From an uncultured Clostridia bacterium (GTDB taxonomy: Bacteria > Bacillota > Clostridia > Christensenellales > UBA1242), in contig CANBAL010000005.1 in NCBI GenBank assembly GCA_947366545.1, positions 16,621 to 80,620 on the forward strand: DNA of 64,000 nt, given 5' to 3'. A program made the position numbers and the translations under genes. Positions within the stretch are counted from its first letter, which is position 1; each line of letters starts with the position of its first letter. This document shows positions 6,853 through 23,683 of this stretch, in pieces. Under the pieces are notes generated by a model, which saw nothing but the letters and a program-made list of their open reading frames with translations, ran no database searches and had not been told where the DNA came from.

Positions 6853-6880
6853 AAAGACTGCCACTAAGGCAGTCTTTTTT
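6851..6880. terminator. Bidirectional intrinsic terminator
   Basis: AAAAAGACTGCC-ACTAA-GGCAGTCTTTTT. Confidence 0.8.
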
Positions 6881-7122
6881 TAGCAACAATTTTTTGCTAA
6901 CAGCATGCCAGCGAGGAAATACACCGCTGAGCATGGGATTTGAATATTGAGGTTTCCGCAATTTCCGCAAGTGGAGTTGCAAGGTGGGAAGGAAATAGGT
7001 GGAAATGGCATTGGTGGGAAAGGCGGAAAGAAAGGTGGGTTGTCACAACCACAGTGAGGGGGATTATGACAGCCACGAAGGTCGACAAAACAACCTTGTC
7101 GATAATGACAGTTATTACACAT
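6880..7122 (-). CDS. Small Cys/Pro-rich protein, possible spore coat/exosporium component
   Basis: SD AAGGAGG before ATG 7122; CHNPPHCGC, PPFFPPFPPMPFPP, CNSTCGNCG; function inferred from composition only. Confidence 0.6.
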   Translation of the reverse strand: MCNNCHYRQGCFVDLRGCHNPPHCGCDNPPFFPPFPPMPFPPISFPPCNSTCGNCGNLNIQIPCSAVYFLAGMLLAKNCC

Positions 7123-7171
7123 ATATGCCTCCTTTAGCATTTATTGTGGCTCCAGTTAATAAATTAGTAAT

Positions 7172-8173
7172 GTGAAAAAGTCTTTCCTTGCATTTTTAAT
7201 TACAATAGGTACTGTTATAGGGTCAGGGTTTTTGAGTGGTAAAGAAATAGTTGTCTTTTTTTCACGGTTTGGCAAGTTTTCTTACCTGTGTATAGTCCTT
7301 GCTTTTTTCTTGTTTTGGGGGCTTTTCTACTTTATGTTTAATGCAGGGGAAAAGGCACTTGAGCGGCTACAAAAATCCAAGTTATCTTCCTTTTTAAACA
7401 TTGCCATTTGTCTAACACTTTCCTCTGCCATGTTTGCAGGCTCTTTTGAAAGCGTAGCATTTGCAGGTAATTTTTTCGGATTTCTTATTATGGCAGTGGT
7501 GGTAGGAATTTGTTTTTATGTCACAAAGCACGGCCTTGGTGTACTTGAAAAGATTAATGTTATTCTTGTGCCTATAATGGTTGTAATAATTTTGCTTTGT
7601 GAAAGTCCACTATTAAACTTTAACAGCCTTTTAGACTATTCAAGTTCCATTAAGTATGCAGGACTTTTTTATTCTGTTTTCTATGTCCTGCTCAATGCCT
7701 CAAACTCGGGGGTGCTTCTTGCTCATCTTGGGGGAGGGCTTACAAAAAGACAAAAAGCACGAGTAAGTTTTTTCTCTGCACTCGTACTTTGTCTTATCTT
7801 GCTTCTCACAAACAGCGTACTACTTGCAAACAGCGGCGCGTTTGGTGAAGACATGCCTCTTCTTTCTCTATTTACAGGCTCGAAGAGGATTTTAATGCAA
7901 ATTGTCATCTTATTTGGCTGTGTTACCACACTTTTTTCACTTGTCTTTACACTTTCTCGCTCTCTTGGAGGGCGAATTAAAAGCGAGCTAGTGAAAGATA
8001 TAGTTTGTGTCGTTACACCTTTTGCCATAAGTTTTGTTGGCTTTGGCAGTATTGTGGCATATTTGTATCCTATTTCAAGCGTGCTTGGAGGGGCACTACT
8101 TTTTGATTTATTTTTGTTGCCGTCTCTCAAGCAGGCTTACAAGTCCATACATTCCCGCCGCAAGCAGACATAA
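7172..8173 (+). CDS. YkvI-like polytopic membrane protein
   Basis: IGTVIGSGFLSGKEIVVFF N-terminus, GFGSIVAYLYP C-terminus, ~10 hydrophobic segments. Confidence 0.8.
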   Translation: MKKSFLAFLITIGTVIGSGFLSGKEIVVFFSRFGKFSYLCIVLAFFLFWGLFYFMFNAGEKALERLQKSKLSSFLNIAICLTLSSAMFAGSFESVAFAGNFFGFLIMAVVVGICFYVTKHGLGVLEKINVILVPIMVVIILLCESPLLNFNSLLDYSSSIKYAGLFYSVFYVLLNASNSGVLLAHLGGGLTKRQKARVSFFSALVLCLILLLTNSVLLANSGAFGEDMPLLSLFTGSKRILMQIVILFGCVTTLFSLVFTLSRSLGGRIKSELVKDIVCVVTPFAISFVGFGSIVAYLYPISSVLGGALLFDLFLLPSLKQAYKSIHSRRKQT

Positions 8174-8911
8174 CAGGGCAATACTTGTCATTACAACATC
8201 AAGTTTTAGCATTTGACTGCCATAGTTTATAAGGTAGCCAAGTCCGGCTTTGCTTGAAAGGTATTCACCCATCACCGTGCCAACCCATGCCATTCCAACA
8301 TTGATTTTCAGTACTGAAATGAACTCGGGCAGGGCACTTGGCAGCACTAATTTTGTAAGTATCTGCCATTTGTTTGCTCGCATTGATTTCATGAGAAGCA
8401 TTTTATCTTGGTCACATGAAATGAATGCATTAAGCATGGAAATTATGGTTATGACAAGGCATATTAGTACGCACATGACAACAGTGGCCGAAGTGCCTGA
8501 GCCTACCCAGAAGATAATCATAGGGCCGAGTGCTATTTTTGGCAAACTGTTTAGTATGATAAGGTAGGGCTCCATAATACGCCGAAGTTTTTCACTCCAC
8601 CAAAGCATGATTGCAATGGCGACGCCAAGCACTATTGCGATGACGAAACCGATGATTGTTTCATACAAAGAGGTCCAGATATGAAGGAAAAGGTTTCCAT
8701 TCACGGCAAGGTCAGCAAGGGTTGTAGCAATTCTGGAAGGGCTTGAGAAGAAGAATGGGTCTATCGCGCCAGTAGCGGCAAGAAGTTCCCATAATCCTAA
8801 GAAAAGCACGAAAAGTGTTATTTGCCAAAAAATGACGATAATTTTATCTTTTCTCAGCCTTTTTAAGTATTTTTCATGGGCTTTTGATAGATTGTGTTGT
8901 TTCTTTTTCAT
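8108..8911 (-). CDS. ABC transporter permease (NitT/TauT/SsuC type)
   Basis: FFSSPS, LNSLPKIALGP, EAA-like loop, VMGEYLSSKAGLGYLI. Confidence 0.9.
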   Translation of the reverse strand: MKKKQHNLSKAHEKYLKRLRKDKIIVIFWQITLFVLFLGLWELLAATGAIDPFFFSSPSRIATTLADLAVNGNLFLHIWTSLYETIIGFVIAIVLGVAIAIMLWWSEKLRRIMEPYLIILNSLPKIALGPMIIFWVGSGTSATVVMCVLICLVITIISMLNAFISCDQDKMLLMKSMRANKWQILTKLVLPSALPEFISVLKINVGMAWVGTVMGEYLSSKAGLGYLINYGSQMLKLDVVMTSIALLCLLAAGMYGLVSLLERRQQK

Positions 8912-9665
8912 TGGTAAGATTTCTCCATATCATTTCAAAATGCTTGCCAAAATCTTTATCCTCGCGTTTTGCAAGCGGGGTGGAGCCGGAAAGGTCTAAA
9001 TCAACCACCTCTTTCACCGTGGCTGGACGGTAACTTAAAATGACAATTCTGTCTGATAAAGATATCGCTTCCGAGATGTCGTGTGTGACTAATAGTGCGG
9101 TTTTCTTTTCTTTCTTAATGATGTCGTATACATCATCGCAAACCTTTAATCTAGTCTGAAAGTCCAGTGCTGAAAACGGCTCGTCAAGAAGTAGTAAATT
9201 TGGCTCAAGAACGAGGGTGCGAATAAGTGCCACCCTTTGTCTCATACCTCCGCTTAGCGTGCGAGGTTTTTTATTTTTGAAGCCGTAGAGGTCGTATTTT
9301 TTTAAGAGTTCTTCTGCAAGGGCAATTTTTTTAGGGTCTTTATTTTTCTTTTGTACTTCCAGCCCAAGCATGATGTTTTGCCAGATGGTACGCCATTCAA
9401 AAAGATGATCGCGTTGGAACATATAGCCTATACGAGGGTCATTTTTTGCAATAGGTTTTCCCTGCAAATTTATCTGTCCGCTCGTTGCTTCAAGTAGTCC
9501 TGCGGTAAGGGACAGGATTGTTGTTTTTCCACAACCGCTTGGTCCAACTATGGAGGCAAATTGCAATTCATCTATTTCAAATGAAACATTATTAAGGGCA
9601 TGGATTTCATGCTCTTTTGTCTGATAAAAGTAGGTTACATCTTTAAACTCTAAAAATTTTTCCAT
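8874..9665 (-). CDS. ABC transporter ATP-binding protein (NitT/TauT type)
   Basis: GPSGCGKT, LSGGMRQR, LLLLDEPFSALD. Confidence 0.93.
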   Translation of the reverse strand: MEKFLEFKDVTYFYQTKEHEIHALNNVSFEIDELQFASIVGPSGCGKTTILSLTAGLLEATSGQINLQGKPIAKNDPRIGYMFQRDHLFEWRTIWQNIMLGLEVQKKNKDPKKIALAEELLKKYDLYGFKNKKPRTLSGGMRQRVALIRTLVLEPNLLLLDEPFSALDFQTRLKVCDDVYDIIKKEKKTALLVTHDISEAISLSDRIVILSYRPATVKEVVDLDLSGSTPLAKREDKDFGKHFEMIWRNLTNEKETTQSIKSP

Positions 9666-9745: not shown

Positions 9746-9774
9746 TTGCAAAGGTAAAAAAGCGGGTTTACAAT
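9746..9774 (+). promoter_or_regulatory. Sigma-A-type promoter for the phage-derived module
   Basis: TTGCAA-17 bp-TACAAT, then SD AAGGAGG (9794-9800) and GTG start 9807. Confidence 0.6.
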
Positions 9775-9806: not shown

Positions 9807-10106
9807 GTGGATGAAGAAGAGGAAGAGATAAAGAAAGCATTACTAAAAAAAGCCCTAGGGTACATGGCGGACGAGGTGGTTGAAGAATATGTGATGGGGG
9901 AGGACGGAGAGGAAAAACTTGCGAAGCGCAAGGTGACAAAAAAGCATGTCAGTCCTGACATTTCTGCAATTCGGGTCTTCCTAGAACGATATGACACCGA
10001 CCTGTCCAGCCAGATAAAAAATATGACGGATGAAGAACTTTATGCAGAAAAGGCAAAACTCATCAAACTATTAAAGGAGGAATATGATGGAGATTTATCA
10101 GTGTAA
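9807..10106 (+). CDS. Phage small-terminase-like protein (C-terminal part only)
   Basis: ALLKKALGY...KVTKKHVSPDISA resembles Firmicutes phage proteins that precede terL; position at start of head module. Confidence 0.6.
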   Translation: MDEEEEEIKKALLKKALGYMADEVVEEYVMGEDGEEKLAKRKVTKKHVSPDISAIRVFLERYDTDLSSQIKNMTDEELYAEKAKLIKLLKEEYDGDLSV

Positions 10107-10308
10107 ACAAAAGGTAAAGTGCGATTTTGCAGGTTGCAAAAATGTTGCAGATTACTCACTCGTCAAAAGCGGACTTCTAAGGCGAGATATCTGCTTATGC
10201 GAAGAGTGCATGCAGGAAATATATGAATGCATTTCAAAAGTTAGGGTGCCTAAGGCACTTGAAAGTCCATTTAAATTAAATAAGAGGTTGAAGAAAGATG
10301 AAAAGTAA
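10084..10308 (+). CDS. Small Cys-rich (putative Zn-binding) protein
   Basis: CDFAGC...CLCEEC; overlaps both neighbours; SD AAGGAGG. Confidence 0.6.
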   Translation: MMEIYQCKQKVKCDFAGCKNVADYSLVKSGLLRRDICLCEECMQEIYECISKVRVPKALESPFKLNKRLKKDEK

Positions 10309-12151
10309 AGAAAACAAATTAGTAGAAGAAGTGATAGAGGATTTTAAAGCAAGGTCACTTCAAAGAAAACCATTTGAAATTTCGTGGCAGATAAATATGA
10401 ATTTCCTTATGGGGAATCAGTATTGCAGTATCGGTTATGGCGGCGAAATTGAAGAAAGCGATAAAAGTTATTTTTGGCAGGAGCGTGAGGTGTTTAATCA
10501 TATTGCACCTATATACGATGTAAGATGTGCCAAACTTTCAAAAGCCAGACCACACTTTGTGGTAGTGCCTGCAACCAATGATGAGAGGGACAAGCAGGCG
10601 TCCAAGGTGTCTAAGAAGATACTTGACTCAGTGCAATATAAACTTGGCATGGAGAACTTAATTGAGCAGGCTATCAAGTGGAGCGAGGTTTGCGGAAGTG
10701 TTTTCTACAAAGTGACATGGAATGGCGAAAGGGGACAACTTATCGCAAAAGATGATGACGGACATGATATCCGTAGTGGAGAGGTTGAGGTTGAGGTAGT
10801 CAGTCCTTTTGAAATCTATCCCGATTCATCCACTCGTGAAAGTATCGAGGAGTGCGAAAGTATCATACACGCAAGAGTGCTTTCAGTAGAACAGATAAAA
10901 CAAATGTATGGCATAGAGGTGGCTGGCAAAACAATTAACTGTTACAGCCTTGACAATGTGTCCTCAGGCCTTGGTGGACTTGGTTATACCGCCACCGCCA
11001 CAAAACTTATAGAAGGTGCGCGTGCAAATAGTGGGCTTGTCCTTGAAAAGTATGTAAGGCCTAATGCGGAGTATCCAGAAGGCAGACTTATAATAGTCGC
11101 AGGTGAAAAACTTGTATATGACGGAAATTTACCATACCTATGCGGTGAAGATAAGACGAGAGATTTCCCTTTTGTAAGACAGATAAGTTTGGAAAAGACG
11201 GGATGTTTTTGGGGTGGCAGTGTAATAGAAAGATTGATACCTGTACAAAGGGCATATAACGCTGTCAAGAACAGAAAGCATGAGTTTATAAACCGCCTTA
11301 CCCTTGGTGTGCTTAGCGTTGAGGACGGGTCGGTTGACCTTGATAATCTTGAAGATGAAGGTCTTTGCCCAGGAAAGGTGCTTGTATATAGGCAGGGGGC
11401 AAATGCACCAAGGTATTTAAATGGTGAGGCTTTGCCTTCTGGTTTTGCCGATGAGGAGGAAAAACTTCTTGATGAATTCAATAGGGTGAGTGGGGTAAGT
11501 GACACCCTTGGCACTGACTATATGAATTCTAATATGAGTGGTACCGCACTTGAACTTATGATAGGACAGGATGAAGTGAGATTAAATACCACTTCACATA
11601 GTATACAGGCGGCGGCCTTAAATGTAATGAAAAAGGTGCTTAGACTATATAAGCAGTACGCCCTTTTCCCTCGCCTTGCAAGAATAATTGGTGAGAATGG
11701 TGAGATAGAGGCATTCTATTTCTCCTCAAATGACATATCAAGTGACGATGTCATAATTGACGCTCAGGATGATTTGGGAGATAGCATCACCACCAAACGC
11801 GAAATGGTATTTAATCTACTTAACGCGGGAGTGCTTTATGATGATGAGGGGAAACTCACAAACAGGATGAAGGGAAAAGTGTTGGAGATGCTTGGACTTG
11901 GGGCTTGGCAAAGCGCCCAAGATATACAAGAACTACACATAAAGAAAGCGGGAAATGAGAATTTGAAAATGCTTTCTGGGATTAATGTAACTGTCAGCGA
12001 GATAGATGAGGATGATTTACATATCTCAGAGCATATTGCGTTCATGCTGGGCAGCGATTATGAAAACGCAAAACAAAAAAATCCTAAACTTGAAGGAGTA
12101 TTTTTAAATCATATTAAAGAACATAAAAAAGCAAAAAAATCGGAGGAGTAG
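10298..12151 (+). CDS. Phage portal protein (P22-like)
   Basis: 617 aa; FLMGNQY, VFNHIAPI, VVPATNDERDKQAS, VVSPFEIYPD, IERLIPVQRAYN, FNRVSGVSD; position before scaffold and capsid. Confidence 0.8.
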   Translation: MKSKENKLVEEVIEDFKARSLQRKPFEISWQINMNFLMGNQYCSIGYGGEIEESDKSYFWQEREVFNHIAPIYDVRCAKLSKARPHFVVVPATNDERDKQASKVSKKILDSVQYKLGMENLIEQAIKWSEVCGSVFYKVTWNGERGQLIAKDDDGHDIRSGEVEVEVVSPFEIYPDSSTRESIEECESIIHARVLSVEQIKQMYGIEVAGKTINCYSLDNVSSGLGGLGYTATATKLIEGARANSGLVLEKYVRPNAEYPEGRLIIVAGEKLVYDGNLPYLCGEDKTRDFPFVRQISLEKTGCFWGGSVIERLIPVQRAYNAVKNRKHEFINRLTLGVLSVEDGSVDLDNLEDEGLCPGKVLVYRQGANAPRYLNGEALPSGFADEEEKLLDEFNRVSGVSDTLGTDYMNSNMSGTALELMIGQDEVRLNTTSHSIQAAALNVMKKVLRLYKQYALFPRLARIIGENGEIEAFYFSSNDISSDDVIIDAQDDLGDSITTKREMVFNLLNAGVLYDDEGKLTNRMKGKVLEMLGLGAWQSAQDIQELHIKKAGNENLKMLSGINVTVSEIDEDDLHISEHIAFMLGSDYENAKQKNPKLEGVFLNHIKEHKKAKKSEE

Positions 12152-12154
12152 AAT

Positions 12155-12766
12155 ATGGAAGAAATCAGAGAACAACCAGTTAAGGAACCGACAGATGTTT
12201 CGATTGAAACGAGTGAGACGAGAGTTGTGAGTGAAACTGGCTCTCAAAATGACACGGCTCGACAAGCACAGCCCGAGCAAGGTGAATATGGCAAGTTTAA
12301 ATCATTGGAGGCATTACTTTCTGCCTACACAAATTTAGAGGCCGAGTTTACCAAAAAGTGTCAAAGGCTTAGTCAACTTGAGAAAGAAAAAACAGGGGAA
12401 GGTGATATTGATGAAAAACTTTCCCAGTTCCTTTCAAAAAATGAGGAGGCTGGCTCTTATGCTGAGGAACTTAAAGAAATTGTAAGCACCGAGGCAGAAA
12501 CAGGGGAGTTCGATTCTGCACTTGCGAAGATAGTACTAAATCGCGTAGCGCAGAACAAAGTGGACGACCCTATGGTAAATCGTTACATACTTTCTAGTGA
12601 CGAATTGAAAAACAAGGTAATTGAAAATTATCTTAACGCTCTTAAGGAGCAAAAACCACCAGTTGTAATTTCTTCTCAAAAGGGTGAGAGGGTGTCAAGC
12701 ACTATGCCTGACACTCCAACCTCACTATCTGAGGCAAAAAAAGTGGTGGAAAAAATGTTTAGTTAA
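12155..12766 (+). CDS. Capsid scaffolding protein
   Basis: Acidic disordered N-terminus then GKFKSLEALLSAYTNLE (podovirus scaffold-type motif); between portal and capsid. Confidence 0.75.
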   Translation: MEEIREQPVKEPTDVSIETSETRVVSETGSQNDTARQAQPEQGEYGKFKSLEALLSAYTNLEAEFTKKCQRLSQLEKEKTGEGDIDEKLSQFLSKNEEAGSYAEELKEIVSTEAETGEFDSALAKIVLNRVAQNKVDDPMVNRYILSSDELKNKVIENYLNALKEQKPPVVISSQKGERVSSTMPDTPTSLSEAKKVVEKMFS

Positions 12767-12780
12767 AAAAGGAGAAAATT

Positions 12781-13980
12781 ATGGTAACATTACAAACAGC
12801 CGAAAACGCTTTGAAGTCTGTTTATCTTGGAGTGGTTGCTGACCAAATTAATATTTCAACAAGCCCACTTTTTGCAAAGATTAAACGCTCATCTAAAGAC
12901 ATATACGGCAAAGAAATTGTTAAAGCCGCTCCATTTGGGGTAAATGGCGGTTTCGGTGCTGGCGGGGAAACAGGACCTCTTCCAGTTGCTGGAAATAAAA
13001 ATTATGCTCAATTTAGGGCAACACTTAAAAACCTTTATGGTCAATTTGAAATCAGTGATAAGGCAGTACGCGCATCTGCAAGCAATGTAGGCGCATTTGT
13101 AAATCTTCTTGCTGACGAAATGGAAACACTTGTAAAATCTTGCAGTTTCAACCTTAACAGAATGCTTTATGGTGCAGGAGATGGCCTCGTAGCCACTGTA
13201 AGCAGCGTTGACGCCACAAATAAAGTGGTTACATGTGACAGCGTAAGAAATATAGTTGAAGGAATGATGCTTGATGTTTATGGCACTACTGGAAAAACAA
13301 ATACCGCTCCAGTAAAGGTGGTTGCAGTAGATAGAGCGTCAAATAAATTTAAATTTGAGGGCACTCATACTATCGCAGCCGCAAACAAATTATATGTTCA
13401 AGGCTCAAAAGATCAAGAACTTACCGGTATTGAAGCACTTTTCACAGGAGACACACTCTATGGTCTTAGCAAGAGCGATTATTACTGGCTTAAATCTTTC
13501 CAAGATAAAACAGAAGGCGAAATATCTGATATAAGGATTCAGACTGCTATTGACTTCCTTGAAGAAAATGCTGACTCAAAAATCAACTTCATCGCTACTT
13601 CAAGAAAGATAAGAAGAGCATATCAAGAGTATCTTAACATTTATAGAAAGAATGTAGATATTGTAGATCTTGGAAATGGTATTAAAACTATCACACATAA
13701 TGGCATCCCAGTATACGCTGATAGATTTGTAAAAGAAGGGGATATGTATTTACTTAATACAGACGACTTCACATTGTATGAACTTGGCGACTGGAGCTGG
13801 ATAGAGGACGAGGCTGGCAGAGTTATAAGACAAAACGCAGGCTATCCTACATATAGTGCAACCCTTGTAAAATATGGCGAACTCATTTGTGACAAACCAT
13901 ATGGACAAGGCAAGATATCAAACATATCTGCATCTGTAAACGATCCATACAAGACATATATACCAGATACTAACGCATAA
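12781..13980 (+). CDS. Phage major capsid protein
   Basis: 399 aa; TLKNLYGQFEISDKAVRAS, LNRMLYGAGDG, ELTGIEAL, HNGIPVYADRF..GDMYLLN; strong SD; followed by terminator. Confidence 0.85.
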   Translation: MVTLQTAENALKSVYLGVVADQINISTSPLFAKIKRSSKDIYGKEIVKAAPFGVNGGFGAGGETGPLPVAGNKNYAQFRATLKNLYGQFEISDKAVRASASNVGAFVNLLADEMETLVKSCSFNLNRMLYGAGDGLVATVSSVDATNKVVTCDSVRNIVEGMMLDVYGTTGKTNTAPVKVVAVDRASNKFKFEGTHTIAAANKLYVQGSKDQELTGIEALFTGDTLYGLSKSDYYWLKSFQDKTEGEISDIRIQTAIDFLEENADSKINFIATSRKIRRAYQEYLNIYRKNVDIVDLGNGIKTITHNGIPVYADRFVKEGDMYLLNTDDFTLYELGDWSWIEDEAGRVIRQNAGYPTYSATLVKYGELICDKPYGQGKISNISASVNDPYKTYIPDTNA

Positions 13981-14005
13981 AGCAAAAGCGAAGGCTTTTG
14001 CTTTT
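13979..14005 (+). terminator. Intrinsic terminator after the capsid gene
   Basis: AAAGCAAAAGC-GAAG-GCTTTTGCTTT. Confidence 0.8.
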
Positions 14006-14020
14006 ATTAAGGGAGGAAAA

Positions 14021-14338
14021 ATGAAGGATTATACTATAATCGAGCACGACCCACTATTTATTACAGATAGGCTGAGGGAAATAGATAAAACATATTTTGT
14101 ACTTTACAATTTAAAGCTTAAAAGGTATGAAGTGCATTCCAGCGGGCAGGCTGGCGGCAGTTATTGTTTCAGTTTGCCCTATTCCTCCCTTGATGAGAGA
14201 GCGGTGACCCAGTGCCTTCGCACAAGGCGGGAGAATATTGATAAAGTCATTAAAGAAATGGATGACGAAAATGAAAAATTACAAAAGCGTCTTGTGCGAA
14301 AGGCGATAGAAAAATATGTGGAGGTGAACATATGTTAG
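14021..14338 (+). CDS. Phage-module hypothetical protein
   Basis: SD GGGAGG; 105 aa; within the virion gene run. Confidence 0.65.
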   Translation: MKDYTIIEHDPLFITDRLREIDKTYFVLYNLKLKRYEVHSSGQAGGSYCFSLPYSSLDERAVTQCLRTRRENIDKVIKEMDDENEKLQKRLVRKAIEKYVEVNIC

Positions 14339-14895
14339 CATATGAAGTGATAAAAGCGGCGTGTCAGTTTTCTGATAATGACACTCTTGCCGATAAGATT
14401 TTGTCGGCGTCAGACTTCGACACTGATTTTACAGATGAGGAAAAGAAAACGCTTACAAGATATTTGGAGTGTCTAAACTATGTACAAGAAGAGGTAGCAA
14501 GCGAGTTTAAACCTCTTAAAGCCACCGAGACTTTCAAAACCGAAAATTTCAAAATAAATTTCAATGCTTTTAAAAAGATCCCGCTTCAAATACTTTCTGT
14601 CAAAGATAATAGAGGCGGAGGGGTAAAGTTTAAGGTATTTCCAACCTATCTTATGGCTTTTGCAAGTGAGGTTGAGGTCACTTATGGTGCTACTCCAATA
14701 AAACTTGATTATGACAGCCAAATAGAGGTGGATTTGCCGCAAAGAGTGCTTGGCTATGGCGTGGCACGGGAGTACTACCTAAGACAGGGGCTTACCGAAG
14801 ACGCTGAGATTTATGAAAACAGATTTAAGGGGAGTTTAAAACTCATTTTAAGAAAAAAGGCCGGCACCACTTTGCCTAGGAGGAGGTGGCTGTAA
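14332..14895 (+). CDS. Putative head-tail adaptor / tail tubular protein A-like
   Basis: 187 aa helix-beta-helix layout ending LGYGVAREYYL...AEIYENRF; position after capsid. Confidence 0.6.
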   Translation: MLAYEVIKAACQFSDNDTLADKILSASDFDTDFTDEEKKTLTRYLECLNYVQEEVASEFKPLKATETFKTENFKINFNAFKKIPLQILSVKDNRGGGVKFKVFPTYLMAFASEVEVTYGATPIKLDYDSQIEVDLPQRVLGYGVAREYYLRQGLTEDAEIYENRFKGSLKLILRKKAGTTLPRRRWL

Positions 14896-16367
14896 TGTTT
14901 AATGAAAATAAACTTAAAGTCACGAAAAAAGATAAAAAAATATTCAAGTTTGATTTTTTTAATAAGTGTCCTGCAAGTAGTAAAAATGATGAGGAAATGG
15001 CATATAGCGAGCCAAGGCTTTGTTACAACTTTAAGGTGACAAAAAGCGGACTAGAGAACGGTTATGGCGTGCGGGATTTACAAATGCCACTGTCCACCAC
15101 CAATCTTGAAACTGAGGCGGTGATTCCAATAAACGGAAACGAAGTAAGAAGAATGTGGAGTTTTACTTGGGAGGATAACAACGCAAATGTCCTGAAATAT
15201 TACCTGTTTTACTTTAACGAAAATCATCAAATAAATTATGAGAACCTATTTTGGTCAAGACCGATAAGAATTTCCTTTAACACTGAGTACACATCCACGC
15301 CGGTTGGTCTTAGTTATAGAATAAATGGTTATGACTATATGATATTTTCCACGCAGGACGGAGATGTTTATGTATTTGGTGCGGGCTATGATAAATATCT
15401 GGAAGGTGCACCAAAACTTATTTCCTGCTGTACCCATGATGATAGGCTTTATGCCCTTACAAGCAAGGCAAGGCATAGCCTTGTATATTCCACAAACCTT
15501 AATATTATGGAGTGGAAGGACGATACTACCCAGCACCTTGAGTTTAGTGATGAGCGTGGAAACCTTACCAAAGTAATGTCATTTAATGACTATCTTTATG
15601 TATTCCGCGAGTTCGGTATAACAAGGCTGTCAACCTATTCGACCTCTGGTGAATTTAGTATCCGCCACATCTTCCAGTCGACAAGTTATATTGAAGCCGG
15701 CTCTATTGCATCAAACGGAGAGGATGTATACTTCCTCACTACCGAAGGCTTTTACAGTTTCGATGGAAACTCTGTAAAAGAGGTGGAACTTGACTGTTTT
15801 TCGCAGATAGAAGATTTGTCAAAGTGTAGTGCAGAATGTTTTGAAAATAAATATTATCTTGCCTGCCGTATGAAGTTTGATGAGCGAAGTGAGGGATGTG
15901 AAAGCGGCGAGTATGTAAATAACGCCGTGCTTATCTATGACACTAAAAAAAGGAAGGTGGAGATTTTGCGAGGGATTGATGTGAACCAACTGCTTGCTTT
16001 AAACAATCCACTTAAAAGTAAACTTGTAATGTGCTTTAACGGCGATAAGGTGGGTCATGTGGGGGAACTTACTGATGGCGGCAAGTGCTTTAATCAAAGC
16101 CAGCATAAGGTATGGCAAAATTCTTTCTCAGACTTCGGTCTTGGAGAAGGTGTGAAAAAGGTAGAGCATTTTACGATAAAAACCTCGGCACCTTGCAAAG
16201 TGACATTAAAAAGTGAAAGAGAGACAAGGCAGTATTGCCTTAAAGGCGGGGAAGAAGTGAGGTTAATAAAAAGCGGACTTGTAGGAAGTCGTGTGCAAGT
16301 GACTATCGAAAGTGATAGTGACAAGATAAAAATTTCATCTTTTAAATTAATTTTGAGTGTGCAATGA
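14895..16367 (+). CDS. Putative tail nozzle / head stabilisation protein (P22 gp10 / tubular protein B-like beta-propeller)
   Basis: TAATG coupling; beta-rich blades such as HDDRLYA, FNDYLYVFREFGI, GSIASNGEDVYFLTTEGFYSFDG, AVLIYD. Confidence 0.65.
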   Translation: MFNENKLKVTKKDKKIFKFDFFNKCPASSKNDEEMAYSEPRLCYNFKVTKSGLENGYGVRDLQMPLSTTNLETEAVIPINGNEVRRMWSFTWEDNNANVLKYYLFYFNENHQINYENLFWSRPIRISFNTEYTSTPVGLSYRINGYDYMIFSTQDGDVYVFGAGYDKYLEGAPKLISCCTHDDRLYALTSKARHSLVYSTNLNIMEWKDDTTQHLEFSDERGNLTKVMSFNDYLYVFREFGITRLSTYSTSGEFSIRHIFQSTSYIEAGSIASNGEDVYFLTTEGFYSFDGNSVKEVELDCFSQIEDLSKCSAECFENKYYLACRMKFDERSEGCESGEYVNNAVLIYDTKKRKVEILRGIDVNQLLALNNPLKSKLVMCFNGDKVGHVGELTDGGKCFNQSQHKVWQNSFSDFGLGEGVKKVEHFTIKTSAPCKVTLKSERETRQYCLKGGEEVRLIKSGLVGSRVQVTIESDSDKIKISSFKLILSVQ

Positions 16368-16484
16368 TAGTTTTCAATATGAATCACATAAAGTTCGTCA
16401 ATAGAAAAAAGTTAATTGAAGAGGAGAAACTTATGGAAGATATATTCAAAAAATCGGAGAAAACACAACTGGCGAAAAAGCAAA

Positions 16485-16718
16485 ATGGGAATTTGGAATG
16501 AAATCATAAGTGTGGTTGTAAGCAATGGAATATTTGCCACACTTTTTGTATTCTTGTTTTTTTATCAATTAAAAGATAGTTCAAAACGCGAAAAGGCCTA
16601 TCAGGAAACGATAGAAAACCTTACCGAGCATCTGCAGATAATCGAAGATGTAAGGGAGGAGGTAACCGAACTTAAACAACATATACTTAAGGAGGAAGAA
16701 AGTGAAAGAGAAGATTAA
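16485..16718 (+). CDS. BhlA/UviB-like holin
   Basis: SNGIFATLFVFLFFYQLKDSSKREKAYQETIENL; single TM followed by coiled coil. Confidence 0.8.
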   Translation: MGIWNEIISVVVSNGIFATLFVFLFFYQLKDSSKREKAYQETIENLTEHLQIIEDVREEVTELKQHILKEEESERED

Positions 16719-16941
16719 ATCTTATGGCTTTTGGACGGCACTGGCAGGTGCCATGGTAGTGCTTGTGGACGCACTTGGCGATTTGTTTGGCTTTAGTGTC
16801 AGCGATGAGATAGTGTCAGGTGTTGTAATGGCGGTTGCAGGTGTGCTTGTGGTGCTTGGTGTAGTCACCATGCCAAAAGGCGAAAAAAAACCACCTAGTG
16901 AAGAAACTGATAAAGATGACGAAGAAAAAGAGGGAGAGTAA
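16702..16941 (+). CDS. Second holin-like two-TM protein
   Basis: KIKSYGFWTALAG, two TMs, VLVVLGVVTMP, charged tail; GTG start with SD AAGGAGG. Confidence 0.7.
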   Translation: MKEKIKSYGFWTALAGAMVVLVDALGDLFGFSVSDEIVSGVVMAVAGVLVVLGVVTMPKGEKKPPSEETDKDDEEKEGE

Positions 16942-16955: not shown

Positions 16956-18992
16956 TTACTGTACAACTCCAAGCCCCGTGTAGAACTTATAGTTTGTTGT
17001 ATAGTCACCGATAACTTTAAGCACCTCAAAGTTGATTTCAAGGTAGTCGCAATCCTCTTCTGGTGTAAAGGCTTTAGGGTTTAGCCTGCCATAACTATAG
17101 TAGTTGTTTGCCGCCTCGTCTGATGCTTCCACAAGTTCGTAATAGTTTTTGGCAATGCTTGTTCCTGTAAGAGGGTAAGGCTTGCTTCGTGATACTGTGC
17201 CATCAAATTTCATGTCAGGGTGGTGTAGTAGTCCGCCAGCAAGTTCGGTATTAAATGGATTGATTGTGTAACCTTTTTTGTATTGCTGGTCAATTCCAAA
17301 AAGCATCATTGTGCTGCCTTCCATGCCATAATCATGTGGGCCGTCTTTCACTCTTATCGTATTTGTGGCAACTGTTTTTCGCTCTCCGCCTTTGTTGTAT
17401 ACATTTATATACACCTTGATGTCGATTGCAGAGTTTGTCACCTTGCTGTCGCCGTCATTTCCAGCATCATATTTAAAGTGGAGTGAAATGTTGTCAACAG
17501 TGAAAGCCTCTCTAAACATAAGCACCACGCTTTGGTATTCCATAGCCTCAATGTTTTTGAAAGGGTCGTCACTTGCCACCATAAAGTTTGTGCCGTAATA
17601 GTCTTTAATAGCCGATGCAGGGAACCTGTCAGAAATGCTAGGGCTTCCACCTTCCTCATTTCCGATATGGACATACTCAGTTACGGCTTTCACAATATTA
17701 GAAACAACATTTGTATAATCACGCCTCACTTCTACTGGCGCTTTTTCGTTTATTTTAACAATGTCTTGTACAGTCTCACCAGCATCATTTTTATACTCAT
17801 AGATTGCATATTCATTTTGTTTTACACTATCGGCACCTATTGCGTCACTACCAATTACATTATCAAGAATATATTTAACAAGTTTTGCCTGTTTTGCTTC
17901 AGAGAAACCTACATAGGTCCCGATTTTGTTAAATATATTTTTGATATATGCAAGTGCTTCGTCTACACTTATTGGTGCATCGTTGCCCTGTTTTATTTTT
18001 ACATCTGGCGTTCCATCAGTTAATAATGTTACTTGCACCTGCCCAGGGTTCATTTCAAGGGTAATGCAATAAATCACATATTCAAGTGCTTTCACATAGT
18101 CGCTATAACCTTTGGTGTAAAAACCTGTTGTTTCATCTTTTTCAGCCTGTTGCTGTGTGGTGCCAAGAAAAGCCTCTTGATATTTTTCAGCAATATTAGG
18201 GTCACCTAAATTGTAATAATTGTCTCCTACATTATCAAAATAATTATTGCTCTTATTTTCATTTGTAAAATAGTATGAATTATAAACAATATTAGGGTTT
18301 GTAGGGGAAATAATAGCACTTTTATTATTTGCTGAAAAAGATGTGTTATAGATAAATGACTCAGGTTCTTTAAGACTTCCAAAAGTCCAGTTCCAAGACT
18401 TTGATAAATCTACCATCATATTTACATATGGTCTAAAACTTGTTTCTTTAAATTTTTTGTCTGATATTTCTGGTGTCGTTACATCACCATTTATGTCTTC
18501 TATATATTTAACAATATATTCATCTTGTTGATATAAATTATATCTCACACTATCATAAAAATACTTTTTTCCAGTGGTGGTGTAATATGTATAATTTGCT
18601 GAAGGGGGAGTATATTGATCTTCAGTCCCTTCTATTAATTGGGGCTTACCTTCTATATATTCATCAGTTGATGTAGTACCATATGTACGAGTTAAACCAT
18701 TTAAAATCTGCCAAGCAAATTGCCCATAATATTCTTGATTACCAGTACCGACTGTACCTTCACCATCATAATCATAATTTTCAGGGCGGTATAACACCTT
18801 TACGCCATGTAATGGTACAGGCATATTGTTTTTAAGTTGTTCTTGTAACTGCTCATATGTAATTTCGCCGCGGTTATATTTGTCAATAAGTTCGTCATGA
18901 TAGTTACTGTCATTGCCAAAGCATCCTACGCTTAAAAGGGCGAAGGAGGCGACAAATATAAAACTTATAATCCTAGCAAAGACTTTTTTCAT
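16956..18992 (-). CDS. Hypothetical lipoprotein
   Basis: Signal peptide MKKVFAR...LLSVGC lipobox; 678 aa. Confidence 0.8.
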   Translation of the reverse strand: MKKVFARIISFIFVASFALLSVGCFGNDSNYHDELIDKYNRGEITYEQLQEQLKNNMPVPLHGVKVLYRPENYDYDGEGTVGTGNQEYYGQFAWQILNGLTRTYGTTSTDEYIEGKPQLIEGTEDQYTPPSANYTYYTTTGKKYFYDSVRYNLYQQDEYIVKYIEDINGDVTTPEISDKKFKETSFRPYVNMMVDLSKSWNWTFGSLKEPESFIYNTSFSANNKSAIISPTNPNIVYNSYYFTNENKSNNYFDNVGDNYYNLGDPNIAEKYQEAFLGTTQQQAEKDETTGFYTKGYSDYVKALEYVIYCITLEMNPGQVQVTLLTDGTPDVKIKQGNDAPISVDEALAYIKNIFNKIGTYVGFSEAKQAKLVKYILDNVIGSDAIGADSVKQNEYAIYEYKNDAGETVQDIVKINEKAPVEVRRDYTNVVSNIVKAVTEYVHIGNEEGGSPSISDRFPASAIKDYYGTNFMVASDDPFKNIEAMEYQSVVLMFREAFTVDNISLHFKYDAGNDGDSKVTNSAIDIKVYINVYNKGGERKTVATNTIRVKDGPHDYGMEGSTMMLFGIDQQYKKGYTINPFNTELAGGLLHHPDMKFDGTVSRSKPYPLTGTSIAKNYYELVEASDEAANNYYSYGRLNPKAFTPEEDCDYLEINFEVLKVIGDYTTNYKFYTGLGVVQ

Positions 18993-20666: not shown

Positions 20667-22739
20667 ATGGGAAAAATGAAAGCCAAGTCTAAGTTCGTAC
20701 ATTTTAGATATCTTTTTTATCCGTTTATGGCACTTCTTTTCGGCATAGTTACAAGCCGAAAACTTTTTGCCGGCGATATTCTTACTTGTGTGCTTGTTCC
20801 ACTTATTTTTGTCGGTCTTGTTGCAATTTGTATGTTTTTCCGTAAGTTTAAGCCACTGATTCTTCTTACAGTTTTCTTTTTGCTTGGCAATGGGTTTTAT
20901 TTTCTTGGACTTGCTTGTTACGACTGCAAAGACTATGAGGGTGAAAGCATTGTTATAGGTCGCGTTACCGATGAAGTGCGAGATTATGGCTACTACTCTA
21001 TGTACAAACTTGATAGTGTGCTGATAAATGGTGAGGGTGCAAAGAACATTTATCTTCATGTGAGCGGTGGGCAGTTATTAGAAGCGGGCGATAAAGTCAC
21101 CTTTATAGCAGAGACTACAAAAGTAAAACTTTTTGAACTTGGCTCTTTTAATTCCACCTATCTGAGAAATAATATAGGTTATACGGCAGAAGTGGACTAT
21201 TCCAGTATAACGGTGGTGGATAATAATCTTAAATTTGATGAGTCCTTGCGTTTGTCAGTCAAAAATATGCTTTACGAAAATATGTCGGAGGAAAATGCCG
21301 CAATCGCCTATGCGGTGCTTTTTGGCGACAAATATGATATTCCAAGTTCCACCAAAGACATTTATCGTGATGCTGGCATCATACATATTTTGACGGTATC
21401 CGGATTACATGTCGGATTTTTAATCTCGCTGCTATATTTCTTTTTAAATCTTTGCAAAATGAAACGGCTTTACACCACAATAATTACAAGTGTGATATTG
21501 CTTTTATACAACATTATTTGTGGTTTTGCGCCTTCTATCGTCAGAGCAAGTATAATGGCAATGGTGATTATGCTTTCCAAACTTTCGGGGCGGGAGTATG
21601 ATAGTTTAAACTCGCTTGGACTTGCTGGTTTCATCATTCTTGCCATAAATCCGCTTTACGCTTTTGATAGTGGCTTTTTGATGAGTTTCTTTTGCGTGAC
21701 GAGTATCTTTATGTTAAATCCACCGCTTTCAAAACTCTTTAAAAAGATAATGCCAAAACCTATTTCCACCTATATTTCGCTTTCAATATCTGCACAAATT
21801 GGCATATTACCATTTGTGGCAAGTTTCTTCCAGAATTTCAATTTTCTATCCTTCTTCGCTAATTTAATAATCCTGCCTATATTTGGTATTATTTACCCTG
21901 TACTTTTTATTTCAATTTTTATTTTCCTTATTATGCCTTTCCTATCAAAAGGGTTAGTCGTTTTTGACTATGGATTTTCTGGTATTACTGGCATTGCCAA
22001 GTTTTTCGCTTCTACCTCGCTTACCATTCCTCTTTATCCTTTTGATATTACTTTCTCCATTCTTCTTTTCGTATTGCTATTTCTATTAAGCCGTTTCTTA
22101 ATGGTGAGGAAGATATATAAATTTCTTGCCCTAGGCATTCTTAGTCTGTTCTTTGTGATAGCAGTGGTGGTTTCTTCAATTCCTATAACGCTTGGCTCAG
22201 GCGTGCGCTCACTTAACACCGATTATATGGACAGCCTTTTAATCAGCACAAGCACCGGTCAAACCGCATTTATTTACAAGAGTTTAGATGAGCAAAGGCT
22301 AAAGCAGTATTTATATGTCAATAAAATTTCAAATATAGACTATGTGGTGCTGACACATCAGCCTAGCGAAAGTGAAATTAATTATTTTGAGAAATATAAC
22401 ATCAAAAAATTTCTTTGTAACGAGGGCGAGCCTTCCGGACTTGTGGCAGTGGGTGAGATATTTAACTACGGCGCGATGACATTCAAATTCCAAAAGGATG
22501 AGAAGAAATTACAAGGCTGTGAAATTAATTTTGACGGAAGCAATATTTTCGTTGTTACTTCGGGCAAAATGAGTTATAATGAGATAGAGTTGTTCTCTCA
22601 AAATTACAACCTAGTTTGCACATGGGATAACTTTTATCACATGGGCGAAAGGGGAATGGAATGTGCCGCCTATAAAAAAGAAGGCAACCTTTCATTTTCG
22701 TGGAATGGTTTTGAGTGGAAGAAAAGGGGTATAGATTGA
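20667..22739 (+). CDS. comEC: ComEC/Rec2 competence DNA-uptake channel
   Basis: GIIHILTVSGLHVG, PSIVRASIM, GFLMSF; upstream of holA. Confidence 0.92.
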   Translation: MGKMKAKSKFVHFRYLFYPFMALLFGIVTSRKLFAGDILTCVLVPLIFVGLVAICMFFRKFKPLILLTVFFLLGNGFYFLGLACYDCKDYEGESIVIGRVTDEVRDYGYYSMYKLDSVLINGEGAKNIYLHVSGGQLLEAGDKVTFIAETTKVKLFELGSFNSTYLRNNIGYTAEVDYSSITVVDNNLKFDESLRLSVKNMLYENMSEENAAIAYAVLFGDKYDIPSSTKDIYRDAGIIHILTVSGLHVGFLISLLYFFLNLCKMKRLYTTIITSVILLLYNIICGFAPSIVRASIMAMVIMLSKLSGREYDSLNSLGLAGFIILAINPLYAFDSGFLMSFFCVTSIFMLNPPLSKLFKKIMPKPISTYISLSISAQIGILPFVASFFQNFNFLSFFANLIILPIFGIIYPVLFISIFIFLIMPFLSKGLVVFDYGFSGITGIAKFFASTSLTIPLYPFDITFSILLFVLLFLLSRFLMVRKIYKFLALGILSLFFVIAVVVSSIPITLGSGVRSLNTDYMDSLLISTSTGQTAFIYKSLDEQRLKQYLYVNKISNIDYVVLTHQPSESEINYFEKYNIKKFLCNEGEPSGLVAVGEIFNYGAMTFKFQKDEKKLQGCEINFDGSNIFVVTSGKMSYNEIELFSQNYNLVCTWDNFYHMGERGMECAAYKKEGNLSFSWNGFEWKKRGID

Positions 22740-23683
22740 AAACATTAAAAGCAAGATTAAAGCAAGGTGTAATGCCATGTTACTATGTAACAGGTGATGA
22801 CTATTATCTATTTGACAAGGCGGTGAGTATGATTACCTCCGCCATAAATTTGCAACTTGAAGATTTTAATAAAGCGGTATTTGACGATGATAATTTTTCT
22901 TATGAGGCATTTCTCAATGCTTGTGATATGATGCCTATGGGAAGTGATAAAAGGCTTGTAATTATCAAAAATATCACAAAAATAAACGAAAATGATAAAA
23001 AAAATGTGGAAAATTACTTAAATAACCCTTGTTTAACCACAGTGCTGATAATTTTAGATTTTTATGATAAACTTTCTTTTGCAAAAAATCTATGCGAATT
23101 TGTGGATGCAAAACGCATGGATAGAACTCTCTCAAAAAATATTATAGTTGCCGACCTTGCAAAACGCGGCAAGCAGATAAGCGGTGAGGCAGTAGAGACG
23201 CTACTTGACTACTGTAACGGCTATCTTACCAATGTTATGAATGAACTTGATAAACTTGTCTACTTTGATACAAACGAAAGCCTTATCACAAAAAAAGTGG
23301 TAGAGAATGTGGCAATAAAGAATGAAGAGTTTGCGGTGTTTGAACTTACCGAGGCACTTGGGAAAAAAGATGCAGACAAGGCAATGAAACTCATCTCGCG
23401 TATGGAAAAAGAGGTTGGCACACTTTCGCTTATCTCAAACCATTTCAGAAGGCTTTTCTTTATAGCGATTTCATCTGATGCAACTAATGCATCCCTTGCA
23501 AACTTATTAGGCGTAAAAGAATACGCGATTGCTAAGCAGCGTCAGCAACTTGGCAACTTCTCAAAAATGCAACTAAAAAAAATCTACTCCCTTCTTGAAG
23601 AGGTGGATTACATGGTAAAAAGTGGACAAATGCTGATAGGCAATGCACTCTACTTTTTGGCATTCTCCATACTATTTGTCTAA
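22736..23683 (+). CDS. holA: DNA polymerase III delta subunit
   Basis: CYYVTGDDYYL, MPMGSDKRLVII, NELDKL, VFELTEAL; conserved comEC-holA synteny; TTG start overlapping the comEC stop. Confidence 0.9.
   Translation: MKTLKARLKQGVMPCYYVTGDDYYLFDKAVSMITSAINLQLEDFNKAVFDDDNFSYEAFLNACDMMPMGSDKRLVIIKNITKINENDKKNVENYLNNPCLTTVLIILDFYDKLSFAKNLCEFVDAKRMDRTLSKNIIVADLAKRGKQISGEAVETLLDYCNGYLTNVMNELDKLVYFDTNESLITKKVVENVAIKNEEFAVFELTEALGKKDADKAMKLISRMEKEVGTLSLISNHFRRLFFIAISSDATNASLANLLGVKEYAIAKQRQQLGNFSKMQLKKIYSLLEEVDYMVKSGQMLIGNALYFLAFSILFV

Follow-up and report, generated by a model that had tools for sequence, protein, structure and literature searches.

Why does a bacterium with a genome of less than 1 Mb keep an intact row of virion genes without the genes that would integrate or replicate a phage? 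This question is raised by a stretch of 64,000 nucleotides from an uncultured Clostridia bacterium of the order Christensenellales (assembly GCA_947366545.1, contig CANBAL010000005.1), hereafter the window, in which positions 9807-16941 hold ten uninterrupted plus-strand open reading frames (ORFs), o1 to o10, with five overlapping junctions and gaps of 3-48 nt at the remaining ones. This module occupies the whole space between a minus-strand ABC ATPase/permease gene pair and a minus-strand lipoprotein-like gene, and the ORF listing bears out what a preliminary description of the DNA had stated in this respect, namely that ten co-oriented and intact ORFs fill that interval. The genome carrying the window (G000; other G numbers denote relatives) is assembled in 17 contigs (C1 to C17) totalling 950,806 bp and is 97% complete, and the hosts of the gene set are known solely as metagenome-assembled genomes (MAGs).

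The gene set is host-inherited, intact and under selection, and is neither a decaying prophage nor an assembly artefact nor an active mobile element. It is fairly probable that the module genes encode the head, neck and lysis parts of a podovirus-type particle system which was domesticated long ago, is inherited with the host, resembles gene transfer agents (GTAs) and packages host DNA, the formation of particles, random packaging, release and delivery being predicted from the genes. The preliminary description had proposed a maintained, host-encoded particle of podovirus type, and inheritance, intactness and selection all agree with it, whereas the split architecture turned out to be specific to the genus, the sister genera having their genes in one piece.

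Conservation and inheritance of the gene set

In the 10 genomes of the genus that were read, all ten genes are present in the same order and between the same host flanks (the ABC genes), in 10/10 cases. None of these relatives has a complete prophage at the site, as a recent deletion would have left, and an assembly join is excluded because identical boundaries are found in independent assemblies. The major capsid protein (MCP, encoded by o5), used as a query, found matches in 36/36 other species of the genus and in 9/24 other families of the order, nearly always as a single copy. The large terminase gene, terL, was detected in 34/36 of the sampled species of the genus, the two misses being 94% and 89% complete, with strong matches in exactly the same nine families. 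A wider draw of 120 other species from the genus gave matches for o8, the fastest-evolving structural gene, in 119 (the genome without a match is 84% complete) and for terL in 113; restricted to high-quality genomes, the counts are 83/83 and 82/83, respectively. Both genes are single-copy and free of internal stops, except for matches cut by contig ends and one terL (G871, 63% complete, two stops). The genomes of the genus that keep the gene set measure 0.7-1.5 Mb, and the proteins have diverged to 30-80% identity.

Beyond the genus, the MCP profile matches 191/401 genomes of an order-wide sample, in a pattern that follows families: 20/20 genomes are positive in the window's family (five genera), 17/21, 17/20, 6/6, 10/11 and 13/21 in others, and six well-sampled families are negative (0/12 to 0/21). 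Class-wide, 28/400 genomes match, and the only consistently positive group outside the order has just MCP and o6 in common with the module. In this small-genome family of another order (f96; L247 and L248), the MCP and o6 pair is 41% identical and the portal and terL genes are unrelated, a situation which, judged from the sequences, is module shuffling of a capsid gene pair across orders. In total, the MCP profile matches at least 6279 protein clusters. The public genomes with relatives are uncultured Clostridia from the guts of human, mouse, ruminant, rabbit and chicken, including 'Christensenella sp. UBA1242' and 'Candidatus Onthoplasma'. In one sister genus, a tandem MCP duplication with both copies open was observed (L244, G220:C2, 8035-9204 and 9219-10367).

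Selection was estimated against L043, a public 7.4-kb contig covering all ten genes at 87.6% nucleotide identity. Over 2342 codons, dN/dS amounts to 0.066 (NG86) or 0.078 (YN00), with values for individual genes of 0.03-0.36, the scaffold gene o4 being the highest (0.20-0.36). Taken with the MCP in 36/36 and o8 in 119/120 species, these values agree with the earlier proposal of a maintained module, as opposed to a strain-specific one under relaxed selection. In the comparison with G002, dS is saturated, and dN alone was therefore used: it is 0.14 for terL, 0.20 for the portal gene and 0.22 for MCP, comparable to the 0.16-0.20 for pepF, the ABC ATPase gene and holA, and the activator and GLUG-protein genes that accompany terL (see below) evolve fast (0.61). 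Positions 1-50 of L043 look like Illumina adapter read-through and would be an artefact of that record.

The trees of valS, terL and MCP comprise 8 outgroups and 21 genomes of the genus; the 20 relatives among the latter were picked from 36 as those in which all three genes were listed, G056 and the second copy of G045 being left out. All three trees recover the split between genus and outgroups as well as {G000, G002, G027}, {G008, G030}, a ten-genome clade and {G039, G045}, and the Mantel correlations of tree distances are 0.77 (valS-terL), 0.64 (valS-MCP) and 0.69 (terL-MCP). Congruence of the phage-type genes with the species tree had been proposed as a check: MCP and terL share their main clades with valS, and partial incongruence is found within the genus, as weighed below. 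Apart from this, the valS of G015, G011 and G006 is only 52-53% identical to that of G000, terL and MCP of the same genomes being 59-65% identical, and the G015/G011 pair sits on a long branch in the valS tree; valS may have been replaced in these three genomes.

A second locus with the large terminase

The preliminary description noted that terL is missing from the module and predicted an unlinked copy. Indeed, a Terminase_6N search of the whole G000 assembly retrieved one intact terL, outside the window on contig C7. Its 477-aa product possesses the ATPase and nuclease domains (Terminase_6N and 6C), and 122 of the 477 positions are invariant in an alignment of 29 sequences, including Walker A, Walker B, the TMTPL coupling motif and the nuclease Asp. 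On the 5' side of terL lies the gene of a 167-aa protein with a sigma-70 region 4, which matches phage sigma and late-activator PHROGs (the activator), and between the two, on the opposite strand, that of a 254-aa protein bearing a signal peptide and, at its C-terminus, an anchor. The 753-aa GLUG-motif protein encoded 3' of terL was considered as a tail fibre, but its signal peptide and C-terminal membrane anchor mark it as belonging to the cell surface rather than to the virion, and the idea was rejected.

The arrangement of activator, membrane protein and terL recurs in 20/20 genomes of the genus, followed by the GLUG-like gene in 19/20 (the remaining contig ends there) and then by a gene for an NMT1 binding protein in 10/20. 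The distance from terL to MCP within the genus is 9-10 kb, 35-54 kb or 138-147 kb, or the two genes lie on separate contigs. In four sister genera, by comparison, the genes are contiguous, in the order activator, membrane protein (opposite strand), terL, o1, (o2), portal, scaffold, MCP, o6, o7, o8, holins. Other families have the same order, with the genes of a 344-aa protein and of a DUF7934 protein inserted between o8 and the holins, neither of which was found in any of the five genera of the window's family that were examined. The clusters of the sister genera and other families are compact (10-12 kb), with host genes on both sides and without integrase or replication genes; in three families, the cluster adjoins murG. 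It follows from the gene order in the contiguous clusters that o1 was ancestrally downstream of terL. The TerS-first order of the preliminary description needs correcting in this respect. The break between terL and o1 is specific to the window's genus, the sister genera and other families having kept one cluster.

As regards the neighbouring transporter, the ABC ATPase/permease pair of the window has no adjoining binding-protein gene, and an NMT1-type binding-protein gene adjoins terL on C7 (L003 14172-15167); in G003, the two sets are neighbours. From these layouts in G000 and G003, one rearrangement would have split both the transporter operon and the phage-derived cluster.

Some further features of the C7 locus may be mentioned. 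The 254-aa membrane-protein gene (L003 9253-10107) and its orthologues have no Shine-Dalgarno sequence, and in most genomes of the genus a conserved TAAAAT is found about 7 nt 5' of the ATG, an arrangement suggestive of a leaderless mRNA that diverges from terL. A conserved TGTC, often as TGTC-N6-8-GACA, is located 5' of terL. The sole match of an Rfam scan at gathering thresholds is one tRNA at the C7 locus. A tRNA-Leu gene stands beside the activator gene in G000, G002 and G005; it was examined as a possible ancestral attachment (att) site, an idea that was rejected because none is present at the eight loci read from other genera and families (0/8).

Gene products of the module

The coordinates of the ten genes, their flanks and a promoter-like site are collected in Table 1, along with the basis of each assignment. 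The TerS-like protein, portal, capsid and two holins named in the preliminary description are all retrieved by Pfam, PHROG or NCBIfam matches, and its cysteine-rich ORF can be refined to a conserved zinc ribbon; for o2, the scans of the same three collections gave no family match. Of the parts of a podovirus-type virion module, the P22-type portal and podovirus-type MCP are recognised, the nozzle in part, and the adaptor is at most a candidate.

Table 1. Positions in the window of the module genes, the adjacent host genes and the promoter-like site
Feature	Position	Strand	Basis
ABC ATPase/permease gene pair (flank)	8108-9665	minus	Pfam
Putative sigma-A-type promoter upstream of o1, TTGCAA-17-TACAAT	9746-9774	plus	sequence scan
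o1, short TerS-like protein, 99 aa, without evident DNA-binding part	9807-10106	plus	phrog_309, 1.5e-5
o2, zinc-ribbon protein, 74 aa	10084-10308	plus	C-x4-C...C-x2-C kept in at least 85% of 18 orthologues
o3, portal protein, P22-like	10298-12151	plus	PF16510, 1.5e-18; phrog_156, 7e-32
o4, putative scaffolding protein	12155-12766	plus	position alone (portal-o4-MCP; same placement in phages Jasmine and SU10)
o5, MCP, podovirus type	12781-13980	plus	NF033394 capsid_maj_Podo, 2.6e-67; phrog_14242, 4.9e-51
o6, conserved 105-aa protein always behind MCP, possibly for head completion or decoration	14021-14338	plus	conserved position
o7, 187-aa protein in adaptor position	14332-14895	plus	conserved gene order
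o8, nozzle-like virion protein, 493 aa	14886-16367	plus	phrog_3287 'virion structural protein' in 11/13 orthologues, best E 1e-11
o9, BhlA-family holin, one hydrophobic segment	16416-16718	plus	PF10960, 1.7e-18, match from residue 28
o10, second holin, two hydrophobic (transmembrane) segments	16702-16941	plus	PF04531, 2.3e-5, above cut-off; phrog_297, 1.8e-9
Lipoprotein-like gene, 678 aa (flank)	16956-18992	minus	

Among the orthologues of o1, which measure 58-99 aa, 15/19 match phrog_309 (best E 1.7e-13); the matches are confined to the middle of this TerS profile, approximately positions 195-243 of 319, and no helix-turn-helix (HTH) was detected in the Pfam and NCBIfam scans. The portal o3 is 56-75% identical over 10 genus genomes. 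For o4, the role of scaffold initially assigned is upheld by its position, not by a family match, no significant one being found in Pfam or PHROG. The MCP scores 227 bits against NCBIfam NF033394, for a cut-off of 80, and in the Atlas clusters reached via an MCP homologue, 19-37% of the members carry the SU10_MCP family. o6 has no family match; it stands next to MCP throughout the genus and the outgroups, and also in the mosaic element of the other order. The o8 profile matches PDB chain 7z47_G (E 7.7e-5), a 1005-aa product of gene 17 of phage SU10, which is named nozzle protein in the SU10 structure paper (PMC9509320); tblastn with o8 gave no match in 50,697 phage records. Sequence searches of the PDB with o7, o1, the MCP profile and the portal remained without matches. 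Finally, the true start of o9 is likely the ATG near 16485.

Phage functions looked for in the genome

Structural and packaging genes without integrase, replication or lysogeny modules, one of the defining traits of a GTA, are what the Pfam and PHROG scans yielded for the module, the terL locus and the flanks. The features of an intact prophage (integrase and att sites, repressor switch, replication genes, full tail and lysis cassette) were not found in these three places, and the window flanks show no integrase, tRNA or att-like feature, as had been noted at the outset for the integrase and att sites. Integrase-family matches in G000 are limited to C1, C2, C12, C13 and C17, and none is near either locus. 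The assembly search found neither a second portal nor an HK97-type capsid in G000, nor Amidase_2 or GH25; one Amidase_3 is present, away from both loci. Sheath, tube, tape-measure and baseplate genes are absent from the Pfam, PHROG and NCBIfam matches of the module. Unlike what defines an encapsulin-type compartment, in which a shell protein of HK97 fold goes with cargo but not with portal or terminase, the shell gene is conserved alongside a portal gene and an intact terL. Independently of these searches, C12, C13, C14 and C17 are contigs of low G+C content (0.33) or short ones, and C12, C13 and C17, which carry tyrosine-recombinase genes, are probably other mobile elements unrelated to the module.

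A model of the particle system

Taken together, the genes point to a system split over two loci. Locus I, in the window, would supply the TerS-like protein, the zinc ribbon, portal, scaffold, capsid, three neck or virion proteins and two holins, and locus II, on C7, the phage-type sigma-like late activator, the small membrane protein encoded on the opposite strand and the intact large terminase. Upon some host signal, the activator would turn on the genes and procapsids would form on the portal with the help of the scaffold. TerL, together with a TerS-like protein devoid of a DNA-recognition part, would then fill the heads with host DNA without sequence preference, and o7 and o8 would seal the portal. 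The two holins, along with a host autolysin, would finally release the particles from a lysing subpopulation.

A more specific proposal, which we put forward tentatively as a possibility short of an even chance, is that the system is an independently domesticated, order-wide podovirus-type GTA of the Christensenellales and the machinery behind the GTA-like packaging of whole genomes reported for Christensenellaceae MAGs in particle fractions from human faeces. It would be kept in genomes of 0.7-1.5 Mb for the recombination with which it provides reduced, host-dependent gut bacteria; in the window's family, the two distal genes (344-aa protein and DUF7934) would have been shed and entry would occur via the competence channel of the recipient, comEC being close to the module.

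Comparison with known systems

Among cultured phages, the best matches are Jasmine-type actinophages, with 22-30% identity for terL, portal and MCP. Arthrobacter phage Jasmine has the same order, i.e. terL, two small ORFs, portal, one further gene and MCP, but, unlike the present cluster, then adds a tail spike, an endolysin and large virion proteins after MCP. Regarding Kuravirus SU10, its nozzle gp17 has a beta-propeller stretch in common with o8, which is half as long as gp17, and no similarity was detected between o7 and the SU10 adaptor gp11 or between MCP and SU10 gp9. The genomes of Jasmine, its kin and SU10 measure 45-77 kb and, in contrast to the present set, also encode fibres or spikes, an endolysin, ejection proteins and replication functions.

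The closest parallel in gene content is FpGTA of Faecalibacterium prausnitzii (PMC12946183, Nat Commun 2026). There, a 10.5-kb operon of ten ORFs encodes a TerS without DNA-binding domain, TerL, portal, scaffold and MCP, a second locus encodes fibre, receptor-binding protein (RBP), holin and endolysin, and the particles, of 40 nm and tail-less or short-tailed, contain 8.4-8.9 kb of random DNA; the same report mentions GTA-like packaging for Christensenellaceae MAGs without naming the genes. In both systems, some ten ORFs in compact arrangement code for a TerS or TerS-like protein with no obvious DNA-binding domain and for TerL, portal, scaffold, MCP and conserved hypotheticals, and both are podovirus-like, near-ubiquitous in their genus, provided with a second distant locus, found in gut Clostridia and, by prediction here, based on holins for lysis. 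The differences lie in the host order, in the holins, here inside the main operon, in the endolysin, baseplate, fibre or RBP locus, none of which was found in G000, and in the split-off locus, which carries terL and the regulator here and the tail and lysis genes in FpGTA. The MCP profile has no near-universal matches in any family outside the order, except for the small-genome family that has just MCP and o6; this limited reach gives no more than an indirect hint on the relation to FpGTA. The literature searches brought up no other description of the cluster, and the supplements of PMC12946183 may list Christensenellales loci.

With RcGTA of the Alphaproteobacteria, the system has in common host inheritance, purifying selection, the lack of integrase and replication genes, more than one locus and, probably, a TerS without DNA-binding domain. 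It differs in that RcGTA is siphovirus-like with a long tail, whereas a podovirus-type MCP and portal are found here with no tail tube or tape measure; sequence and host phylum are unrelated as well. In the case of RcGTA, the recipient takes up the DNA through competence proteins. PBSX of Bacillus subtilis is a defective element fixed in the chromosome; it packages host DNA at random, possesses a positive regulator of sigma-like type and causes lysis of its producer. The present set is likewise a defective, chromosomally fixed phage-like element of a Firmicute with such a regulator, but has no sheath, tube or baseplate genes, unlike PBSX, which is myovirus-like and acts as a tailocin. Capsid-forming phage-inducible chromosomal islands (cf-PICIs) have their own capsid, portal and terminase and no tail fibres, and are mobile, with integrase, regulatory and replication modules. 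Here, too, the set has its own capsid, portal and terminase, and no tail fibres were found, but none of those modules is present and the element is fixed and vertically inherited.

Alternative explanations

Several observations weigh against a particle that packages and delivers host DNA. The most important of them is that no endolysin, tail fibre, receptor-binding, needle or ejection protein was found in G000; the tail spike and lysin that the preliminary description had suggested looking for in the rest of the genome did not turn up. Likewise, G000 yielded neither the 344-aa protein gene nor the DUF7934 gene that stand behind o8 in other families, and both are missing from the clusters of the four sister genera, so that the particle may fail to attach or inject. 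The nozzle and adaptor proposed early on fared unequally: the o8 profile finds SU10 gp17 with hhalign at modest strength (probability 55%, E 1.2e-4, 138 columns), and the adaptor assignment of o7 barely holds, 1/17 orthologues matching phrog_2377 'head-tail adaptor Ad1' (2.9e-6). The PHROG matched by the BhlA-type holin o9 is labelled 'bacteriocin production or immunity'. As for inheritance, the correlation of valS and MCP distances within the genus (21 genomes) is 0.33 (p 0.057), rising to 0.65 without two genomes with an aberrant valS, and the MCP tree is poorly resolved there, with few supported branches. Besides, the identity to L043, elsewhere 79-92%, rises to 97% at 12553-12852 and to 99-100% at about 16300-16900, and dS equals 0 for o9, so that some recent homologous exchange between diverged lineages has to be assumed.

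The absence of fibre, ejection and endolysin genes is the chief caveat and lends some weight to a role in lysis or as a killer particle. According to this explanation, the particle would be domesticated for altruistic lysis or killing in the manner of PBSX or a bacteriocin, or for the release of extracellular DNA or of cell contents, the capsids being a by-product or their DNA never being delivered. We regard it as rather unlikely, but it draws on the fixation of two holins in the cluster, in the genus and in other families, on the bacteriocin label of one of them and on the missing fibre, RBP and ejection proteins, and the same possibility is considered for FpGTA by its authors (PMC12946183). 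On the other hand, terL, the portal gene and the TerS-like gene are as conserved as housekeeping genes, which is hard to explain if packaging is irrelevant, and tailocin-type tail or sheath genes were not found.

A still-active mobile element, such as a capsid-forming satellite or a minimal temperate phage that depends on a helper for tails and replication and repeatedly re-enters genomes, is improbable. MCP relatives do occur on 67 IMG/VR contigs, yet these are mostly fragments of 4-17 kb, as a virus caller would flag in host contigs. Mobility could also be read from the near-identity patches between diverged lineages and from the family of another order with only MCP and o6 in common, a sign of module shuffling. 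G045 carries two copies; the possibility of a prophage had prompted a look at the second one, and a Pfam scan of its ten flanking ORFs gave a single HTH only. Against mobility, no integrase, att, replication or repressor genes are present in or beside the cluster in G000, G059 and the other loci read, the cluster is single-copy in nearly every positive genome, its chromosomal site is constant across the genus, the trees track valS, and its parts are both intact although up to 147 kb apart or on different contigs.

It is very improbable that the capsid was co-opted as a compartment, either a DNA-free protein shell or a sporulation-linked structure: a compartment has no need of portal, terminase and TerS, which are nevertheless the most conserved parts, and no evident cargo-like gene is present, although a sigma-like regulator belongs to the system and two Spo0A_C-bearing ORFs are kept in the 0.95-Mb genome (G000:C3:32673-32981 and 69173-69478). 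Lastly, a functionless cryptic prophage remnant that is not yet eroded is scarcely credible. In its favour, many phage functions are missing and the MCP of the outgroup G056 is broken; against it, dN/dS is 0.07 and frames are intact in 119/120 (o8) and 113/120 (terL) species, at protein identities down to 30-80% and in genomes of 0.7-1.5 Mb.

Significance

To our knowledge, GTA-like elements are few and mostly found in Alphaproteobacteria, and the first podovirus-like GTA of gut Firmicutes was published only in 2026. The cluster is a concrete and testable candidate for the genes behind the GTA-like packaging of Christensenellaceae. Its conservation extends over at least 120 species of a single genus, a whole family and many sister families of uncultured bacteria from human and animal guts, and given strong selection in genomes below 1 Mb, the particle would matter to its host. 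Should it move DNA, a gut lineage that is heritable and health-associated would have a major route of gene flow that has been overlooked. Besides, the genus-specific split between terL and the head genes offers a dated natural example of a prophage operon dismantled and rewired after domestication.

Control sites and neighbouring genes

The preliminary description credited the module with its own promoter and terminators. The former is supported by comparison: TTGnnn-N16-18-TAnnnT precedes o1 in 11/11 genus genomes, where 1000 shuffles gave 2.4 on average and 7 at most. In contrast, single-sequence scans give 19 promoter-like sites for 17.1 expected and 9 terminator-like ones for 6.1, neither being beyond chance, and no plus-strand terminator was found after o10 in the window scan. 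A sigma-54 promoter was considered for the conserved TGGCA...TTGC element before o1 and rejected, because its spacing is one base too long and the TTG belongs to the -35 box of the sigma-A-type promoter.

Beyond the module, comEC (PF03772, 1.9e-54) and holA are located at 20667-23683, comEC being 3.7 kb from the module, and in G027 and G016 comEC directly adjoins the holins. The presence of a competence channel beside a candidate GTA may be due to chance or may be relevant to DNA uptake. On the other side, an 86-aa cysteine- and proline-rich ORF without family (6880-7140, minus strand) is conserved: G027 and G002 carry it in the corresponding position, with 33-44% identity.

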